IMG/VR virus record: IMGVR_UViG_3300034954_001540
Span: 16,865 to 80,864 of that record
Direction: 5' to 3' (one strand)
Origin: a virus
DNA: 64,000 nt
The notes under the pieces are model-generated. The model searched no databases. It saw only the letters and a program-made list of their open reading frames with translations, and had not been told where the DNA came from. Both the position numbers and the translations under genes were made by a program. Shown in pieces: positions 16,562 to 58,567 of the stretch (positions within the stretch are counted from its first letter, which is position 1; every line of letters starts with the position of its first letter).

Positions 16562-18444
16562 TGCCAAGAACAGTTCCTGGATCTGGTGCCGCTATCTTCC
16601 CCGTATTCAATAGTATATTCGGGGTAAGAGAGGTTTACGTTACTGCTGGAGGTAGCGGGTATGACCCTGCTGATCCTCCTAGACTTCGTATTGAAAATTG
16701 TGGCACACCAATTAGGGATGCTGTGCTTAGACCAGTTATTGAAGGTGATGCTGGAGAGATCACTGCTGTTGAAGTGCTTGATCCAGGCGAGGGATATGAT
16801 CCCATGCGTTTGGAAATTGAAGATGATGGTGCAACTGTCCCTGCAGAAGGTAAGATTTTCCTGAAGCCAGACGGTGGTATTGACTTCATCCAGATGACTC
16901 AGTTTGGTGATGAATATTTTAATGCTACTGCACAAGTTAGAGGTGGTGGTGGATCTGGATCTGAATTGGTGCCTATCACAGGTCTGGTTACAGGTCTTGC
17001 TATTGAAGAGTTTGGTAGAAACTATACAGAAGAAGACGTTAATATCATCATCTCAGGTGGTGGTGGATCTGGTGCAACTGGTGTTGCTGGCGTCAACCCA
17101 TTCGGTAAAGTTACTGCAATCACACTTACCAATGCTGGTGAATTCTTTGAAGACCCACCTCTGATTCAAATTATTGGTGGTGGTGGATCTGGTGCTAGTG
17201 CTCAGGCATATATTGATCTTGGTGCTATCACAACCATTGACCTGCTAACAGGTGGTGATGGTTATGTTAACGCTCCTCAGGTTATCTTTACTAGAGATAC
17301 AAACCTGATTAAGACTGCACGAAACAGACAGTCTCTAAACTCTGTTGTTTACAATTTGTCAGGTATTCTTACCGACGTAACCACTGGTGCTCAGACAATC
17401 TATACTGAGTCAACTGCACCTTATCCAGGATCTGGTAAGGTTTTGCTAGGTAGAGAGATTGTCAGATATACAGGTAAAACTGCAAACTCTTTCACTGGAT
17501 GTGATAGAGGCACAAACTTCCGTTTTGATCAGAAGGTCATTCTCGACACATTGCAGAATGATCCTATCACCAATGAAACACTTTATTCTTTTCAGGTTAC
17601 TGACAAAGTAAGACGTGTAGTTGAATCTGCAACTAACAGAGTCGCTATCGTTTATGACTGGGATCCTGTTGAGAGAGCACTTTATCTGACCTTTGAGGTT
17701 GATGAATTGGCATTTATTGATGCTGGTAGATCAAACGAGAAGTCTAAAATTATTGCATTCTTTGCAGGTACATCTGCATCTTCAGGCACTGGTGTTGCAC
17801 CACATACTTTGGTTGAAGTAGAAGGTGAAGATATTGTTGCATTTACTAACCCTTTGTCAATCATTCAAAACAGAAAGTTTGAGGATGATGACGAAGAGTT
17901 TACAGATGCTAATGGTGTGCAACAGTTTGGAGATGGTATTCCCGATCTTCTCAATACTGGCACGGACTATGAAAACCAGATCAATCTAGATGGGGGCATC
18001 GCCTCGTCTAAATATGGTATTGAGGAAGAATTAGGTGGCACCAACACTACGCTCTTCCAAGTGGGTGATCAGATCTATGATGGTAGTCCTAACCAGTTGG
18101 TTGCTACTGTCCAATCTGCAGGTGCTCTGGGTGATGGAGATGCTCACATCTCTACTGCAACTATTACTATTGAATATATTACTGCATCTCTGTTTAATGT
18201 TCCTGGTGCTGGTGGCGAAGAGACAGTCACTGGTCAAACCTCGGGTATTGCAGCAACAACTACAAATAGAAGACTTGGACCTAAGGCAGGTCAATTCTAT
18301 CTAGACGTTAAGTCACTGGTTGCTAATGACCCAACTTATAAGTTTACTCCTGGTGAGCAACTTAACGGAAACTCCTCTGGCGCTCAAGCAAGAGTGCTTG
18401 CTGTCGAGTATAACAACTTCCTCAGAAATGAGGGCGAGTATTAA
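16561..18444 (+). CDS. Baseplate-associated structural protein (Gly-rich GGGGSGA repeats)
   Basis: Repeated GxGY...P.I.I.GGGGSGA modules; overlaps the upstream stop by 1 nt; precedes gp8. Confidence 0.65.
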   Translation: MPRTVPGSGAAIFPVFNSIFGVREVYVTAGGSGYDPADPPRLRIENCGTPIRDAVLRPVIEGDAGEITAVEVLDPGEGYDPMRLEIEDDGATVPAEGKIFLKPDGGIDFIQMTQFGDEYFNATAQVRGGGGSGSELVPITGLVTGLAIEEFGRNYTEEDVNIIISGGGGSGATGVAGVNPFGKVTAITLTNAGEFFEDPPLIQIIGGGGSGASAQAYIDLGAITTIDLLTGGDGYVNAPQVIFTRDTNLIKTARNRQSLNSVVYNLSGILTDVTTGAQTIYTESTAPYPGSGKVLLGREIVRYTGKTANSFTGCDRGTNFRFDQKVILDTLQNDPITNETLYSFQVTDKVRRVVESATNRVAIVYDWDPVERALYLTFEVDELAFIDAGRSNEKSKIIAFFAGTSASSGTGVAPHTLVEVEGEDIVAFTNPLSIIQNRKFEDDDEEFTDANGVQQFGDGIPDLLNTGTDYENQINLDGGIASSKYGIEEELGGTNTTLFQVGDQIYDGSPNQLVATVQSAGALGDGDAHISTATITIEYITASLFNVPGAGGEETVTGQTSGIAATTTNRRLGPKAGQFYLDVKSLVANDPTYKFTPGEQLNGNSSGAQARVLAVEYNNFLRNEGEY

Positions 18445-37438: not shown

Positions 37439-37847
37439 TTTTGAAGGTATCGAAGACGCTCTTGATGTTGCTAGTGATATCGTCCCAGCATCAAAACCTG
37501 CACCTCCAGTGCCAGTAGAAGAGTTTGCTTCCACAAAGGAGCAACTCAAGAAAGATTATGAATACACAAGAGGCAACCTATACTCTCTCATTGAGAAAGG
37601 ACAGGAAGCAGTTGACGGTATCCTTGATCTTGCTCAACAGTCTGATCAACCAAGAGCATTTGAAGTTGCTGGTCAGTTGATCAAACACGTTGGTGATGTA
37701 GCAGACAAACTCGTAGATCTTCAAAAGAAAGTTAACGAGATTGAAAATCCCAAAAAGTCCAAAGAAGTTAATACCACAAACAATACTATGTTTGTAGGTA
37801 GCACAGCAGATCTCGCTAAGTTTCTAAAACAACAACGCGATAAATAG
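37431..37847 (+). CDS. g16: Terminase small subunit gp16
   Basis: DYEYTR.NLY..IEKG, PRAFEV.GQL and FVGSTADL motifs; ATG at 37431 preferred. Confidence 0.92.
   Translation: MNNFEGIEDALDVASDIVPASKPAPPVPVEEFASTKEQLKKDYEYTRGNLYSLIEKGQEAVDGILDLAQQSDQPRAFEVAGQLIKHVGDVADKLVDLQKKVNEIENPKKSKEVNTTNNTMFVGSTADLAKFLKQQRDK
37840..37846 (+). promoter_or_regulatory. T4-like late promoter (ATAAATA) at the start of the g16-g17 island
   Basis: Late core overlapping the end of g16; AGGAG RBS downstream. Confidence 0.6.
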
Positions 37848-37871: not shown

Positions 37872-38405
37872 ATGTCAGTATTAAATGTCCTTGACACCCA
37901 AACTATTTCAGGAAGTGGCACTGGCTACGTCGTAGTGAAATCGGGTGTTGTCCGCTGCTATGCAGCATCCGCGTCTTCGATTCAATTTGACGCTGGTCCT
38001 GCGATCACTTTGGCAGCAGGTGAAGCATTGCTCCTCTCCGTGGGTAAAGCAAAGAATGCATCTATCAGTGCAGGCACAAACGCTGCTACTAGCGTGTTGA
38101 CCGTATTGGGTGGTGGCACCCCCGCACACAGGTTTGTCGTTGGCGATTATATTCAGACCGCTGCAAATGGAGACACCGCTTTTACGAGTGATTTTGTTTC
38201 TGCAGCATCTGCTGGTAAGAAGGTAACTGCTGTTTCCGATACCACTATCACCACCGATATTGATGCGTCTGGTGCAGGAGGTAACTATGCATTATCTGAA
38301 GCCGATGTCATTGCTGGGACCGTCCCAGTATTGCAGCGAGCAGTCAAACTCACCGCTGGATCTGCCGACGTTGTTGTCGAGCAAGTCCAAGTCGTCGGAG
38401 GATGA
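37872..38405 (+). CDS. Hypothetical protein (beta-rich, possibly virion-associated)
   Basis: AGGAG RBS, upstream late promoter, Ala/Thr/Ser-rich composition. Confidence 0.75.
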   Translation: MSVLNVLDTQTISGSGTGYVVVKSGVVRCYAASASSIQFDAGPAITLAAGEALLLSVGKAKNASISAGTNAATSVLTVLGGGTPAHRFVVGDYIQTAANGDTAFTSDFVSAASAGKKVTAVSDTTITTDIDASGAGGNYALSEADVIAGTVPVLQRAVKLTAGSADVVVEQVQVVGG

Positions 38406-38408
38406 CGA

Positions 38409-40703
38409 ATGCCAGCAGTCTCAAGAGCCCAACAAAGATTCTTCGGGATGGTTAGAGCGGCTCAAAAGGGGGATCTCAAATCGCCGTCGCCACAGGTTCA
38501 AAGAACTGCTGCCAGCATAAAGAAAAAGGATGCTAAGGATTTTGCATCCACCAAACATAAAGGTTTACCAGAGAAAAAAATGAAATCTTTTTCCGAAATG
38601 CAACACATCCCTGAAGAGGGATATGATCACTGGCGTGATAAGCAACTTGAGAAGTATGGCTCAGGTTATAGATCTGCAGGTAGTCGCCGCAGTGTTGCAA
38701 GGTCTGGTGGGACGCAACCAAAACCCATGCCTAAGAAGAAAGAGGGTGGTGACTCTGCTCTTGACTATGTGAAGAAGTCCATCGAAGCAAAGTATGGCAA
38801 GGGTGCCATCATGGATACTTCTAAGAAAAAGAATGAAGAGGTTGTAACTGAGAAGAAGAAAGGTCTCTGGGACAACATTCACGCTAAGAGAAAGCGTGGT
38901 GAGAAACCTGCTAAGCCTGGTGATAAAGATTATCCTAAGACTCTCAACGTCGAAGGTTATGATAAACCAGACGAGAAGTTGAAGACTGATCGGGATATGT
39001 TTAACATCCCTAAGGAAAAGCAGAATGCTGCAAAGGAGCGTCTTCTCGCTAAAGCAAAAGCAAAGCGTGCAAAACTGAAAGAAGATGTTTGGGATCAGGT
39101 TGACATCTTTGCAGAGATGAATGACTGGGAGATCTCACTCCTTAATGATACTATTATCGAAGATATCATTACTGATGTCTTCATCGAAGAATTACAAGAA
39201 GGTAGAGATATTGATAGCGTCACAGATATGCTCTGTGAGTCTGTTGATTACTCTCTTAATCTCTTGACAGAAGTATCAGATAAGTATTATGATAGTGCTG
39301 TTGCTTCTTCTAAAGCAGCAAGCAGGACTCCTGAAGTAAAGGCTGCTAACCGCAGACAAAAACTTGAAAAGGTTAAGAGTGCTGCTAAGAAGGTTGGATC
39401 TGCACTGAAGTCTGGTCTTAAGACTGGCGCTAAACTTGCACGCAAAGGTGCTGTTAAGGGTGCTGAAGTTGCTGGTAAGGCAGCAGGTCACGCGAAAAAT
39501 CTCGCGAAAGACATGGGTAGTGCCGCTAAGAAAGGTTACCAGTCCACTCAAAAGGACTCATCTTCTAGCGACTCTGATTCCTCCTCTTCTTCTTCCTCAT
39601 CTTCATCCTCCTCTTCTTCTAGCGAGTCCAAGCCTAAGAAGCCTGGTCTGCTCAGCAGAATTGGTAGCAAACTGAAGCGTGGTATCAAGAAGGCAGTTGG
39701 TGCTGGTGCAAGAGCTCTCTCCCGTGGCGCACGCAATGTTGCACGCCGTCTGGGTGAAGAGACTCTCCTAGAGAAAGGAATGTCCGAGAAGGATATGGAT
39801 TCTGCTCTTAAGGGTCACAAGTACAGTAAGAAGCAACTCATGGACATGAGTAAGAAGTCTACTAAAGAAGGTAGACACGGTGAAGCACAGTCCATGTATA
39901 AGGCTGCCCGTGCCATGAAGGAAGACACCATCAATGAGCGTGGTGATTTCTGGCATCCTGATCCTGAGAAGGATCGTAAACTGGGTGGTCCTGGCGCTAA
40001 CCAGCGTGCTCGTGAAGATCGTGCTGCTGCATCTAAACCTGCTGCTAAGAAGGAAGATCCTAAGAAACTGCGTAAGGGTGAGTCCTACATGGACTATGCC
40101 AAGCGTCAGCCAGGTTACAAAGCACCCGCTAAGAAAGAAGGTTTGCGTGACAAGATCAAGCGTAAGCTTGGTTTGAAGAGAGAGGAAGTCGAAGTCCTTT
40201 CTTTCAATGCATATCTCTCAGAGGGTAACCGCACTGGTCGTATGATGCAGAAGTCCAAGACTCAGGTCACTGGACACATCTCTGCTGACAGGGGGTCCGA
40301 CGAAAAAAAGAATCGTGAGGGTCGTAAGTCTCTAGAGAAGGATCTCAAGAAGCATGGCATCGGTCACAAGAAAGGTGTCGGTGAGTATAAGTATGACAGT
40401 GGAGAAACTGGCCGAGAAGTTTCCTATCAGACTTCAAAACCTGATAAGATGTCAAAACGCCGTTTCGGAAAGGTCATGCGTCGCATGGGACGCAAGCACG
40501 GGCAAGAATCCGTGATCACTAAAGACAAAGACAAACCTGCAAAATTGCATTATACTGAGAAAGGTAGTAAAGCAAAATCCGATAGTATCGGAAAGACTAA
40601 GGCAGGTAAGCATCCCGAAGGTTATGGTGAAACTTCTGGCACCAAAGTCAGAGGTGGTAAGCTTCCCAAGAAAACTAACAAATCATCTTATCATTATGGC
40701 TGA
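38409..40703 (+). CDS. Large Lys-rich modular protein; putative internal-head polyprotein
   Basis: Basic modules separated by hydrophobic-x-E linkers; capsid-targeting-like MKSFSEM and LSFNAYLSE; poly-Ser tract. Confidence 0.8.
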   Translation: MPAVSRAQQRFFGMVRAAQKGDLKSPSPQVQRTAASIKKKDAKDFASTKHKGLPEKKMKSFSEMQHIPEEGYDHWRDKQLEKYGSGYRSAGSRRSVARSGGTQPKPMPKKKEGGDSALDYVKKSIEAKYGKGAIMDTSKKKNEEVVTEKKKGLWDNIHAKRKRGEKPAKPGDKDYPKTLNVEGYDKPDEKLKTDRDMFNIPKEKQNAAKERLLAKAKAKRAKLKEDVWDQVDIFAEMNDWEISLLNDTIIEDIITDVFIEELQEGRDIDSVTDMLCESVDYSLNLLTEVSDKYYDSAVASSKAASRTPEVKAANRRQKLEKVKSAAKKVGSALKSGLKTGAKLARKGAVKGAEVAGKAAGHAKNLAKDMGSAAKKGYQSTQKDSSSSDSDSSSSSSSSSSSSSSSESKPKKPGLLSRIGSKLKRGIKKAVGAGARALSRGARNVARRLGEETLLEKGMSEKDMDSALKGHKYSKKQLMDMSKKSTKEGRHGEAQSMYKAARAMKEDTINERGDFWHPDPEKDRKLGGPGANQRAREDRAAASKPAAKKEDPKKLRKGESYMDYAKRQPGYKAPAKKEGLRDKIKRKLGLKREEVEVLSFNAYLSEGNRTGRMMQKSKTQVTGHISADRGSDEKKNREGRKSLEKDLKKHGIGHKKGVGEYKYDSGETGREVSYQTSKPDKMSKRRFGKVMRRMGRKHGQESVITKDKDKPAKLHYTEKGSKAKSDSIGKTKAGKHPEGYGETSGTKVRGGKLPKKTNKSSYHYG

Positions 40704-40824
40704 AGAAAAACGCAAGTGTAAGTATTGTGGCATCACTGCCCCTCTTGGGCATCACCGTCCTACCACATGGATGGAGAAGCACGAGTTGAATTGTGCCAGA
40801 AACCCTAAGAATAAAGAAGAATGA
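40696..40824 (+). CDS. Small C2HC zinc-finger-like protein (42 aa)
   Basis: CKYC...H...C pattern; overlaps both neighbouring genes. Confidence 0.6.
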   Translation: MAEEKRKCKYCGITAPLGHHRPTTWMEKHELNCARNPKNKEE

Positions 40825-41294
40825 AATCCTTTTCCCAATTCGTAGCAGAGCAAGACAACGTAGATGAAGCCGTTGGTCTAGCAATCGCGAGAGCGATTGA
40901 TAAGACTAATCCCCCATTGGGTAGACCTTCTAGACGTAGAGATCTTTCTCATGCTCTGAAGATGAGGGAGGTGCTTAAAGGTGCCAAGAAGAGGAAGGAT
41001 GATAAGAAAAAATCTCCTGTTAATTTCATGCAGGATAAGAAAGAAACAAATGAAGACTGGCAGAAAAAGTCAGGCAAAAACCCTGAAGGCGGATTAAATG
41101 AAAAAGGTAGAAAGTCGTATGAGCGTGAAAACCCAGGAAGCGATCTTAAGGCACCTTCAAAAAAAGTTGGGAACCCTCGTAGAGCGAGCTTTTGTGCGCG
41201 AATGAAAGGGATGAAGAGGAAACTCACATCTAAGAAGACAGCGAGCGATCCTGATAGTAGAATTAACAAATCACTTAGAGCTTGGAATTGTTGA
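40821..41294 (+). CDS. Basic protein with T4-like capsid-targeting N-terminus (putative internal head protein)
   Basis: Starts MKSFSQFVAE; conserved phage C-terminal motif GKNPEGGLN.KGR...RRASFCARM...W.C. Confidence 0.75.
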   Translation: MKSFSQFVAEQDNVDEAVGLAIARAIDKTNPPLGRPSRRRDLSHALKMREVLKGAKKRKDDKKKSPVNFMQDKKETNEDWQKKSGKNPEGGLNEKGRKSYERENPGSDLKAPSKKVGNPRRASFCARMKGMKRKLTSKKTASDPDSRINKSLRAWNC

Positions 41295-55205: not shown

Positions 55206-55454
55206 ATGCCTACACAATCTGCGCTTGAGATAGTCAACGCATTGTTTGCAGGTCAAAAAGACCTTTCAGATTATGTGGACGCCGCTATGAAAACCGTAGC
55301 AGTGGATCAAATTGACGCAAAGAAACAAGAAATCGGATCCTCCATGTTTAAGGAGCCCGAGGAAACACCTGAAGTCGAAGCATCTGCAGAGACTGAAGTA
55401 ACTGATACACCACCAGAGGAAACTACAGATGAAACTGATCAGGGAGGAGATTGA
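55206..55454 (+). CDS. Small acidic prohead core protein (gp67/68-like position)
   Basis: Acidic protein between g20 and g21. Confidence 0.65.
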   Translation: MPTQSALEIVNALFAGQKDLSDYVDAAMKTVAVDQIDAKKQEIGSSMFKEPEETPEVEASAETEVTDTPPEETTDETDQGGD

Positions 55455-56076
55455 ATCCGCTAAGGTAACAATCACTGAAGGTAAGGATGGCAAAAAGCGC
55501 CACTTTATCGAAGGTGTTTTCCTGCAGGGTGAAATCAAGAATAGAAATGGACGCATGTATCGCGCAGAAACTCTTCAGCGCGAAGTTGCTAAATACAACG
55601 AGCAATACATTTCCAAAGGTCGCGCACTAGGTGAGTTGGGTCATCCTGATGGTCCTACTATTAACCTAGATAGAGTGTCCCACCTGATTACTTCTCTGCA
55701 AAGAGAGGGTAATAACTTCGTAGGTAAGGCAAGACTTCTCGATACCCCCATGGGTAACATCGCTAAGTCCCTTCTCGATGAAGGTGTGAAACTAGGTGTA
55801 TCTTCCAGAGGTCTCGGATCTATCAAGGAAGAAGGTGGTATTAAAGTTGTCGCTGATGACTTTATGCTCGCAACTGCTGCGGATATCGTAGCAGATCCTT
55901 CCGCCCCTGACGCTTTTGTCAATGGCATTATGGAAGGAAAAGAGTGGGTTCTTGCTGGAGGCGCAATCCAAGAGCAAAGAATTGATCAAATCAAGCAAAG
56001 AATTGATAAGGCACACCGCTCTCAGTTGGATGAGATGAAACTTTCCGCGTTTCACTCCTTCATCAAAAATCTTTAA
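55429..56076 (+). CDS. g21: Prohead protease gp21
   Basis: KNRNGR.Y, GELGHP, GVSSRG.GS and D.V.DPSAP motifs. Confidence 0.96.
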   Translation: MKLIREEIESAKVTITEGKDGKKRHFIEGVFLQGEIKNRNGRMYRAETLQREVAKYNEQYISKGRALGELGHPDGPTINLDRVSHLITSLQREGNNFVGKARLLDTPMGNIAKSLLDEGVKLGVSSRGLGSIKEEGGIKVVADDFMLATAADIVADPSAPDAFVNGIMEGKEWVLAGGAIQEQRIDQIKQRIDKAHRSQLDEMKLSAFHSFIKNL

Positions 56077-57205: not shown

Positions 57206-58567
57206 ATGTTTAACGCTGAAGCACTCCAAGAGAAGTGGAACCCCATTCTTGAGCACAATGAGCTCGATCCTATTAAGGATACCTACAGAAAGGCGGTTAC
57301 CTCTGTCCTCCTGGAAAACCAAGAAAAATTCCTCAAGGAAGAGCGCGGTCTGGTAACAGAAGCTGCTCCTACTAACTCCTTGGGAGGAACAGGATACTCT
57401 GGTAGCAGCACTGCTACAGGTCCTGTTGCAGGTTTCGACCCTGTGCTGATCTCTCTGATCAGACGCTCCATGCCTAAGCTTATTGCTTATGACATCTGCG
57501 GTGTGCAGCCTATGACTGGTCCTACTGGACTGATCTTCGCAATGCGCTCCACTAAGGGCACTAACAGAGACATCGCTAACAGCGGCGTTGAGACCTTCTT
57601 CAACGAAGTTGACACTGAGCATTCTTCTGAGAATAGCTCCAACGGTCTTGCCTCTAACACTCAGACTGGTAGCAATCCTGGTCTGCTTGCTGACGCTGCT
57701 GGTAACTACACCATCGGTGGTCAAGGTATGACTACTGCTCAGGCAGAAGCCTTGGGCGATGGCGCTACTAACCACTTCAACGAGATGGGATTCTCGATTG
57801 AAAAGGTTACAGTTACTGCGAAGTCAAGAGCCCTCAAAGCTGAATACAGCTTGGAGCTTGCTCAAGACCTGAAGGCAGTGCATGGTTTGGACGCTGAGTC
57901 TGAGCTTGCAAACATCCTCAGCACTGAAGTGCTGGCTGAAATCAACCGTGAGGTTGTCAGAACTGTTTACAAGATCGCTAGACCTGGTGCACAAAACAAC
58001 ACTGCAACTGCAGGCGTGTTTGACCTCGACGTTGACTCCAACGGTCGCTGGTCGGTTGAGAAATTCAAAGGTCTTCTCTTCCAAATCGAAAGAGACATGA
58101 ATGCTATCGGGCATGAAACTCGTCGCGGGAAGGGCAACATCCTCATCTGCTCTGCTGATGTGGCATCTGCTCTGTCCATGGCTGGTGTGCTTGATTACAC
58201 TCCTGCTCTGTCTGGTAACAGCAACTTGCTGCCCGACGACAACAGCAGCACTCTTGCTGGTACACTTAACGGTCGTATTAAGGTCTACGTCGATCCTTAC
58301 TCTGCCAACGTTTCCGATGCTCACTTCTATGTGGCTGGTTACAAAGGTAGCAGTGCTTATGACGCAGGTCTCTTCTACTGCCCTTATGTGCCTCTCCAGA
58401 TGGTTCGTGCTGTGGGTCCTGACACCTTCCAACCTAAAATTGGATTCAAGACTCGTTACGGAATGGTCGCTAACCCATTCGCTGAGGGTCTTACACAAGG
58501 TCAAGGCGCACTTACAGCTAACGCTAACCGTTACTACAGACGTGTTAAGGTTACTAACCTTATGTGA
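57206..58567 (+). CDS. g23: Major capsid protein gp23
   Basis: GVQPMTGPTGLIFAMR, ELAQDLKAVHGLDAE and FQPKIGFKTRYG motifs. Confidence 0.98.
   Translation: MFNAEALQEKWNPILEHNELDPIKDTYRKAVTSVLLENQEKFLKEERGLVTEAAPTNSLGGTGYSGSSTATGPVAGFDPVLISLIRRSMPKLIAYDICGVQPMTGPTGLIFAMRSTKGTNRDIANSGVETFFNEVDTEHSSENSSNGLASNTQTGSNPGLLADAAGNYTIGGQGMTTAQAEALGDGATNHFNEMGFSIEKVTVTAKSRALKAEYSLELAQDLKAVHGLDAESELANILSTEVLAEINREVVRTVYKIARPGAQNNTATAGVFDLDVDSNGRWSVEKFKGLLFQIERDMNAIGHETRRGKGNILICSADVASALSMAGVLDYTPALSGNSNLLPDDNSSTLAGTLNGRIKVYVDPYSANVSDAHFYVAGYKGSSAYDAGLFYCPYVPLQMVRAVGPDTFQPKIGFKTRYGMVANPFAEGLTQGQGALTANANRYYRRVKVTNLM

Follow-up and report, generated by a model that had tools for sequence, protein, structure and literature searches.

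In phage T4, the internal proteins IPI, IPII, IPIII, and Alt begin with a ten-residue leader of the form M-K-(T/S)-(Y/F)-x-x-F-(I/V/L/M)-x-E, which is followed by basic cargo. The T4 capsid-targeting sequence (CTS), MKTYQEFIAE, is removed by one cut of the prohead protease gp21 (PMC8442874); its residues 4 and 7 serve targeting, and residues 8 and 10 serve processing (PMC9026906). gp21 cuts after L/I-x-E, and the propeptide of T4 gp23 has 65 residues (PMC9026906). Besides the T4 internal proteins and their CTS, a virion-associated S-adenosylmethionine (SAM) hydrolase has already been described in a cyanophage. Here we analyzed a 64,000-nucleotide (nt) stretch (the window; positions 16,865 to 80,864 of IMG/VR record IMGVR_UViG_3300034954_001540), which comes from a contig of 80.9 kb belonging to a T4-like cyanomyovirus, and in it an open reading frame (ORF) of 764 amino acids (aa) at 38409-40703 on the plus strand. 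The original prediction took this ORF for a capsid-packaged polyprotein that the prohead protease cuts into basic peptides. The ORF was confirmed in translation, and its product is a Lys/Arg-rich mosaic of 84.6 kDa with an isoelectric point (pI) of 9.9. We lean, with some reserve, towards reading it as a late, head-internal cargo polyprotein that is processed by the prohead protease and in which a SAM lyase is the one recognizable effector.

The cyanophage ORF resembles the genes of T4 internal proteins in its leaders and basic cargo, a gp21-type protease with an L/I/V-x-E rule, apparently late expression, and diverse, shuffled cargo, which in T4 has an anti-restriction role (IPI*). Unlike the T4 genes, it strings several cargo modules together, has leaders inside the protein, offers many candidate cut sites, has DUF3008 at its N-terminus, carries a SAM lyase as cargo, and lies between g16 and g17. 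With T3 gene 0.3 SAMase and Svi3-3, it has in common the Pfam family, the predicted fold, the SAM-binding residues (GxY, ExS, and QES), and a presumed role against SAM-dependent defence. In a T3 infection, no protein is synthesized before the SAMase (PMC8406200), whereas the cyanophage SAM lyase appears to be late; also unlike the T3 enzyme, it is very basic, has a CTS-type leader, and stands C-terminal to some 600 residues that make up other modules. S-CREM2 gp6 is likewise a SAM-lyase homologue of a T4-like cyanophage with a CTS-like leader, which in gp6 is at the N-terminus, but its lyase is N-terminal in a 414-aa protein encoded at a different locus. T4 gp22, gp67, and gp68 and the inner-body or ejection proteins of phiKZ, 201phi2-1, and SPN3US are precursors cut after Glu at several motifs by a gp21-related protease, and some of the fragments stay with the DNA. 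Their sequences are unrelated, and they act as scaffold or belong to the inner body, whereas the modules in the window look like independent cargo that is also found as separate genes. Finally, the Dar proteins of phage P1, which counter restriction, are carried in the head and enter the host along with the injected DNA; this likeness is functional only, as P1 is not related to the cyanophage and incorporates its proteins by another pathway.

Leaders, linkers, and modules of the 764-aa protein

The product is divided as follows (a slash marks a proposed cut).

38409-38579, plus strand: Module 1 (aa 1-57), the DUF3008 module, missing where orthologues begin at the next Met
38580-38618, plus strand: Leader 1 (MKSFSEMQHIPEE, aa 58-70), a degenerate capsid-targeting-like sequence with a start codon in frame
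38619-39083, plus strand: M2, M3, and M4 (aa 71-148, 149-182, and 183-225), basic modules split by VVTE/K, LNVE/G, and KLKE/D
39084-39773, plus strand: M5 (aa 226-288), acidic and helical with pI 4.1, and M6 (aa 289-455), basic, Ala/Lys-rich with poly-Ser
39774-40196, plus strand: M7 (aa 456-510) and M8 (aa 511-596), preceded by TLLE/K and TINE/R
40197-40223, plus strand: Leader 2 (LSFNAYLSE, aa 597-605), an internal T4-type leader whose L-x-E end lies directly before the SAM lyase fold
40224-40700, plus strand: M9 (aa 606-764), the SAM lyase domain

All eight linkers named in the original prediction were present in the translated ORF, namely IPEE/G (aa 67-70), VVTE/K (145-148), LNVE/G (179-182), KLKE/D (222-225), LLTE/V (285-288), TLLE/K (452-455), TINE/R (507-510), and YLSE/G (602-605). 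The hydrophobic-x-E form ascribed to them fails for LNVE, which has Asn at P3. Six of the eight fit [L/I/V]-x-E with the cut at the predicted position; for IPEE, the rule puts the cut after E69, one residue earlier. The triplet [LIVM]-x-E occurs 16 times in the 764-aa ORF, compared with 8.3 ± 2.6 in composition shuffles (P ~0.005). Except for the two leaders and the acidic M5, every module has a pI of 9.5-10.8.

The predicted MKSFSEM begins at the in-frame ATG at 38580 (aa 58), and LSFNAYLSE lies at aa 597-605, as had been noticed earlier. Leaders resembling the T4 CTS were thus found inside the 764-aa ORF, and they were also found in the next gene and in stand-alone relatives:

MKSFSQFVAE, in the window gene at 40821
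LSFNAYLSE/GNRTGR, in the 764-aa ORF ahead of the SAM-lyase module
MKSFSEMQHIPEE, a weaker form, at aa 58-70 of the 764-aa ORF; relatives carry MKSFSQIAALSEE or MKSFTDFFNEE
MLSFKEFIAE followed by the C-terminal module, in the smallest syntenic genes (L069 and L072), where the sequence after the leader is GG
MKTYQEFMQE/SSLSR, identical to the T4 CTS at 8 of 10 positions, in stand-alone genes elsewhere in marine myovirus contigs (L121-L129)
MKTYQEFMLE...LDE/GG, in the stand-alone relatives L088 and L117-L120

The motif is N-terminal in the gene at 40821, in 28 of 86 syntenic genes (see below), and in the stand-alone relatives, of which one (L099) lies within a block of structural genes upstream of gp13-gp16. 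The strict form was found 15 times in 21 representative proteins, as against 0.7 ± 0.8 in shuffled sequences, and among window ORFs of at least 60 aa it occurs only at 40200 and 40821. In Leader 1, M58, K59, E69, and E70 are invariant in relatives. Of 33 diverse members of the SAM-lyase family, 27 have Glu directly ahead of the fold, 29 carry L/I/M/V at P3, and 23 carry G/S/A at P1'. The Met-leader DNA at 38580-38597 (ATGAAATCTTTTTCCGAA, plus strand) and at 40821-40838 (ATGAAATCCTTTTCCCAA, plus strand) is identical at 16 of 18 positions, and such near-identity could provide a recombination point for cassette exchange.

A 201-aa protein of the SAM-lyase family in Alishewanella phage Slickus01 (L137, OQ508957, 2462-3067) starts MNFVQLLESEINALSE/SSLSR. 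Since Slickus01 is a myovirus of a heterotrophic marine bacterium, the combination of leader and SAM lyase is not confined to cyanophages.

The resemblance of the N-terminus to DUF3008, which the original prediction offered from recall, was borne out: PF11450 matched aa 3-57 with 28.9 bits (cut-off, 24) over profile positions 1-57 of 57. This match was seen only when modules were scanned separately, since the Pfam scan of the whole protein missed DUF3008 and gave just a borderline match for the SAM lyase. Five relatives (L012, L013, L016, L023, and L025) begin at M58 and are without the DUF3008 module. M2-M4, M7, and M8 match no named family. M3, with KKGLWDNIHAKRKRGE, is repeated in some relatives; M7 is present in only 4 of 13 aligned sequences, the window's own included; and M8 holds the invariant RGDFWHPDP...GGPGANQRAREDR, which is also present in S-SM1 and S-RIM2. 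An ESM Atlas look-up of the RGDFWHPDP module returned scores of at most 0.82 and no lead.

The M5-M6 block matches phrog_764 and is a paralogue of Syn9 gp185/T4-GC190. Syn9 gp185 (L133, 889-2478) shares with aa 226-455 a block composed of an acidic-helical part, an Ala-Lys-rich part, poly-Ser, and KKPGLL...RLGE. The phrog_764 match to a 'cytidyltransferase' was rejected as evidence of an enzyme because it covers just this acidic/basic/poly-Ser block common to Syn9 gp185, and the sequence of this portion of the Syn9 protein does not seem to bear out the name 'cytidylyltransferase'.

SAM lyase module and its mosaic family

The C-terminal module (aa 606-764) is, by profile and predicted fold, a SAM lyase, a family whose enzymes convert SAM to MTA and homoserine lactone. 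On isolated aa 600-764, the SAM lyase profile PF23780 scored 32.3 bits (cut-off, 28), and it matched 35 of 35 aligned relatives of the module with a best E of 3e-22. In 1.84 billion representative proteins, 117 matches to the module were obtained; when 34 of these were aligned with it, the only invariant columns were G59, E71, and Q100 (G658, E670, and Q699 of the ORF). In active SAM lyases, only Gly56, Glu69, and Gln104 are strictly conserved, and Tyr58 and Glu105 line the site (Svi3-3; Guo et al. 2021, PMC7877911). The putative active site in the ORF consists of G658-E-Y660, E670-V-S672, and Q699-E700-S701, all invariant in close relatives, and the profile alignment places GxY, ExS, and QES onto G56-V-Y58, E69-N-S71, and Q104-E105-S106 of Svi3-3. 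The family profile found T3 SAMase (E = 1e-6) and Svi3-3 (E = 5e-3) in PDB; this profile was required, since a single-sequence phmmer search with the C-terminal module against PDB gave chance matches alone.

An AlphaFold2 (AF2) model of the module reached a predicted local distance difference test score (pLDDT) of 85.4 and a predicted template modelling score (pTM) of 0.81. Foldseek placed T3 SAM lyase (8bb1_E and 7ock chains) and Svi3-3 (6zm9 and 6znb) at ranks 1-7, the best being 8bb1_E with template modelling (TM) scores of 0.62/0.69. The part of Leader 2 included in the model (NAYLSE, aa 600-605, model residues 1-6) was predicted to be unstructured with pLDDT below 50, and among the N-terminal model residues such values were restricted to the leader. 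A full-length AF2 model with 13 close homologues had a pLDDT of 44 and did not recover the SAM-lyase fold; therefore, it is uninformative on order versus disorder. The module has a pI of 10.2. The original prediction, in which the products would be DNA-condensing or injected effector peptides, did not name the largest module, a predicted folded SAM lyase of 159 aa.

The gene belongs to a mosaic family at a fixed locus. A tblastn search against cultured phages gave 368 records, every one a cyanophage or uncultured marine virus; none reached 80% query cover, and the segments matched differ between records. S-WAM1, P-TIM40, P-SSM4, S-RIM2, S-SM1, Syn9, and S-SZBM1 encode a Lys-rich protein of 222-769 aa at the same locus, in the order gp16, a small-protein gene (mostly DUF7243), and the Lys-rich protein with an overlapping set of modules; S-WAM1, P-TIM40, and P-SSM4 have the form with the SAM lyase. 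Using DUF7243, we collected 86 syntenic genes (80 IMG/VR loci, five cultured-phage loci, and the window), which lie 3' of gp16/DUF7243, encode 171-980 aa, and mix the same modules. They start with M[KL][ST]F in 28 cases, with DUF3008 in 19, and in 20 with a basic coiled segment that has an internal leader behind it. The C-terminus of the 65 complete genes is the SAM-lyase module in 54, DUF6321 in eight, and both in none. DUF6321 is fused at the polyprotein C-terminus in S-SM1, S-RIM2, Syn9, and L029/L030/L067; in the window it forms a separate leader-bearing gene.

Shuffling of modules between phages, which had been proposed, is apparent from this recombination of the same modules among the syntenic genes. 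In an alignment of 13 relatives (70-97% identity), modules are gained or lost whole. E69, E70, E182, E510, and E605 are invariant among them, and E148 and E225 are nearly so. As to the further claim that the breakpoints coincide with the E-linkers, whole-module insertions and deletions start and end at Glu-ending linkers, but the automated statistic is noisy. Both borders lay at most 2 residues from Glu in 21 of 88 events, as against 6.4 ± 2.5, the events being non-independent. In all-versus-all global pairwise alignments, 10 of 747 events matched at both borders (3.2 expected) and 277 single borders matched (196 ± 13 expected), which gives weak support because low-complexity Lys-rich sequence produces spurious gaps. 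BLASTP without composition correction blurred the module limits.

Late-gene context and prohead protease

The neighbourhood of the ORF and the genes relevant to its processing are listed below.

from 35760: gp14, upstream of the 764-aa ORF
from 36641: gp15, upstream of the 764-aa ORF
from 37395: gp16, just before the DUF7243 gene
37839-37846, plus strand: late-promoter-like motif GATAAATA, 25 nt 5' of the DUF7243 gene (37872)
37872-38405, plus strand: DUF7243 gene (T4-GC403; PF23891, 180 bits; synteny), the conserved 5' neighbour of the 764-aa ORF
38409-40703, plus strand: 764-aa ORF, syntenic with S-SM1 T4-GC119 and Syn9 gp114
40697-40824, plus strand: 42-aa Cys/His ORF (MAEEKRKCKYCG...HH...C), which overlaps both of its neighbours, at the 764-aa ORF's stop (ATGG) and at the next gene's start (ATGA)
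40821-41294, plus strand: DUF6321 gene of 157 aa, starting MKSFSQFVAE and with DUF6321 at its end
55429-56076, plus strand: gp21-type prohead protease (Peptidase_S77; 115 bits, cut-off 27)
57353-57361, plus strand: predicted maturation site of gp23 (codons V50-T51-E52), matching L63-T64-E65 of T4 gp23 in the alignment
18448, 27895, 37839, 53512, 56079, and 59898, plus strand: NATAAATA motifs before ORFs of 511, 2334, 177, 544, 354, and 184 aa

The 764-aa ORF starts 4 nt past the DUF7243 stop with GGAGG in front, and it is followed by the 42-aa ORF, the DUF6321 gene, petE, talC, PTOX, and, further on, gp17 to gp23. The upstream late promoter of the original prediction was located before the preceding gene, as GATAAATA; no strict TATAAATA lies directly upstream of the 764-aa ORF. 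Each of the six NATAAATA motifs in the window has a long plus-strand ORF, gp20 and gp22 among them, starting 21-41 nt 3' of it. Their total is not above the chance count, but their placement argues that they are real late promoters; consequently, GATAAATA at 37839 is probably functional. It would probably drive DUF7243 and the 764-aa ORF as one late transcript.

The gp21-type protease encoded at 55429-56076 is presumably the processing enzyme of the putative polyprotein. As had been pointed out, gp23 of the window has a maturation site at the expected place: V50-T51-E52/A53 aligns with L63-T64-E65/A66 at the end of the T4 propeptide. This alignment of VTE/A with LTE/A suggests that Val is accepted at P3. 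The literature that we could search holds no account of cyanophage gp23 maturation.

Several neighbouring features were also recorded. DUF7243 (T4-GC403) has 60 peptide counts in S-SM1 virions and ranks third by count after gp23 and gp19 among the rows considered of that virion table; in S-SZBM1 virions, an 87-aa protein in the DUF7243 position has the third highest exponentially modified protein abundance index (emPAI). DUF7243 is probably a major part of the head or neck that has yet to be described. S-WAM1 and S-SZBM1 have small ORFs of 42-45 aa at the position equivalent to 40697-40824, and the 42-aa product may be a small zinc-binding protein. Between gp20 and gp21, an ORF of 82 aa whose C-terminal tail is acidic (55206-55454, plus strand) takes the position of T4 gene 67, which encodes an 80-aa precursor of internal peptides; S-SM1 T4-GC407 and Syn9 gp130 are in the same place. 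The ORF was rejected as a homologue of T4 gp67 because there was no similarity (E = 92).

Virion proteomes and alternative explanations

If the 764-aa protein is such a cargo polyprotein, its gene would be transcribed from the late promoter together with that of the virion protein DUF7243, and the T4-type leaders would bring the product into the core of the assembling prohead. The gp21-type protease would then cut after the Glu of [L/I/V]-x-E, most likely after the leaders (E69/E70 and E605) and possibly at other acidic linkers. The released basic pieces would remain with the DNA and be ejected alongside it into the host, where the co-delivered SAM lyase could destroy SAM at entry and thereby blunt type I/III restriction and BREX. 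Packaging of the 764-aa protein itself, its cleavages, and its injection are steps that we infer, and they differ in how firmly we hold them: the presence of some part of the protein in virions is likely, cleavage at the leaders seems fairly probable, and a cut at each linker, which would give many basic peptides, is less likely than not.

Published virion proteomes of homologues bear on packaging. The S-SM1 protein at the same locus, SSM1_115 (T4-GC119), was found in virions with 13 counts, and T4-GC190, the paralogue of M5-M6, was found repeatedly in cyanophage virions. S-CREM2 gp6, annotated as 'SAM hydrolase', was detected with 19 unique peptides covering 26% of its 414 aa, and the authors suggested that the capsid carries it as protection for the incoming DNA (Front Microbiol 2023, PMC10665884). 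Its N-terminus is MKDFDSFLEE...SLEE/SSLSR. That paper (PMC10665884) makes no mention of targeting leaders, prohead-protease processing, or a modular polyprotein.

In S-CREM2 (L136, OR473000, 838-10332), the virion-detected gp6 and gp12-gp15 all have T4-CTS-like N-terminal leaders: MKDLHSFLTE in gp13, KRFDAFLTE in gp14 (an APH-like kinase), ...RFASFMAE in gp12 (a Cas9-like nuclease), and MNFSEFNE in gp15. Three neighbours have no leader and are outside the virion proteome, namely gp7, gp8 (Dam), and gp11 (restriction endonuclease).

Several points weigh against a packaged and processed polyprotein. The leaders are internal in the 764-aa ORF, which has DUF3008 at its N-terminus instead, and to our knowledge the T4 CTS has been shown to work only N-terminally. 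Leader 1 is off the consensus at positions 7, 8, and 10, and LNVE, without a hydrophobic P3, does not fit L/I-x-E. T4 internal proteins are cut only once although other L/I-x-E triplets are present (PMC8442874), so the motif alone is insufficient for cleavage. Among homologues, S-SZBM1_194 (707 aa, with a SAM-lyase end), the nearest relative in culture for which a virion proteome exists, is not among the 30 proteins detected in S-SZBM1 virions, and Syn9 gp114 was undetected in the published Syn9 virion proteome. Since the 764-aa protein would yield 33 predicted tryptic peptides of 7-30 aa, trypsin bias is an insufficient excuse for these misses if the homologues are similar. The S-CREM2 authors also warn that soluble proteins, if abundant, may be carried along when virions are purified (PMC10665884).

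The single cut of the T4 internal proteins and the misfit of LNVE, together with the noisy border statistics and the S-CREM2 gp6 data, in which fragments were not reported, fit a protein that is packaged without being a polyprotein, that is, one large basic internal protein trimmed at most once, its linkers being flexible gene-fusion spacers. We consider this unlikely. [LIM]-x-E/G/S is conserved directly ahead of the SAM-lyase fold, even where the fold is internal; E182, E510, and E605 are invariant at 70-97% identity while the adjoining linker residues vary; and cleavage at many sites is known from T4 gp22, gp67, and gp68 and from head proteins of the phiKZ type.

It is quite improbable that the product stays out of the virion as a late cytoplasmic SAM lyase fused to low-complexity nucleic-acid-binding modules, with the leader motifs as relics of gene fusion or as the N-terminal helix of the enzyme. 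Such a protein would suit the non-detection in S-SZBM1 and Syn9 virions, the leaderless DUF3008 N-terminus, the co-purification warning, and the early soluble nature of the known T3-type SAM lyases (PMC8406200). On the other hand, the gene is co-oriented among structural genes behind a late-promoter motif, the leader is almost identical to the T4 CTS, and the modelled leader residues are predicted to be unstructured and outside the fold. Additionally, the S-SM1 syntenic protein and T4-GC190 are present in virions, as are 5/5 leader-bearing S-CREM2 proteins.

An accessory of the prohead core or scaffold that stands in for T4 gp67/gp68, cleaved by gp21 and largely lost from the head before the DNA is packaged, would explain the non-detection in S-SZBM1 and Syn9 and would fit the reported absence of gp67 and gp68 from cyanomyoviruses (PMC2984593) and the acidic helix and basic tail of M5-M6, which have the same character as gp68 sequences in the Sullivan 2010 supplement, but it is very unlikely, given that we found no similarity to gp67/gp68 and PHROGs gave no core-protein match, that the predicted intact SAM-binding site makes little sense in a disposable scaffold, and that the gene is highly variable and often just a leader and SAM lyase (171 aa), unlike an essential core protein.

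With head-internal cargo thus the preferred reading, we tentatively suggest a wider picture. The T4 CTS may be an ancient portable label across T4-like phages of enterobacteria, cyanobacteria, and marine heterotrophs that loads changeable injected effectors (SAM lyase, DUF6321, kinases, and Cas9-like in S-CREM2), and the labelled cargoes could be concatenated in one ORF, separated by the protease in the head, and shuffled at the label or linkers. In the searchable literature, we found no report that leaders of cyanophages and marine phages are nearly identical to the T4 CTS, no link of CTS-like leaders to virion-detected enzymes, no concatenated cargo modules with internal leaders in one ORF, and no connection of SAMase with internal proteins or the CTS; prediction of capsid-carried proteins in cyanomyoviruses was not addressed there.

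If the proposed packaging and processing are true, the leader together with L/I/V-x-E would provide a sequence rule for predicting capsid-carried proteins of cyanophages, and it would account for the SAM hydrolase and kinases in cyanophage virion proteomes. SAM would be destroyed by a pre-made enzyme at DNA entry rather than by one synthesized after infection as in T3. Its setting would be the phototroph-phage systems that are the most abundant in the sea, and the T4 internal-protein system would reach far past the enterobacterial phages.

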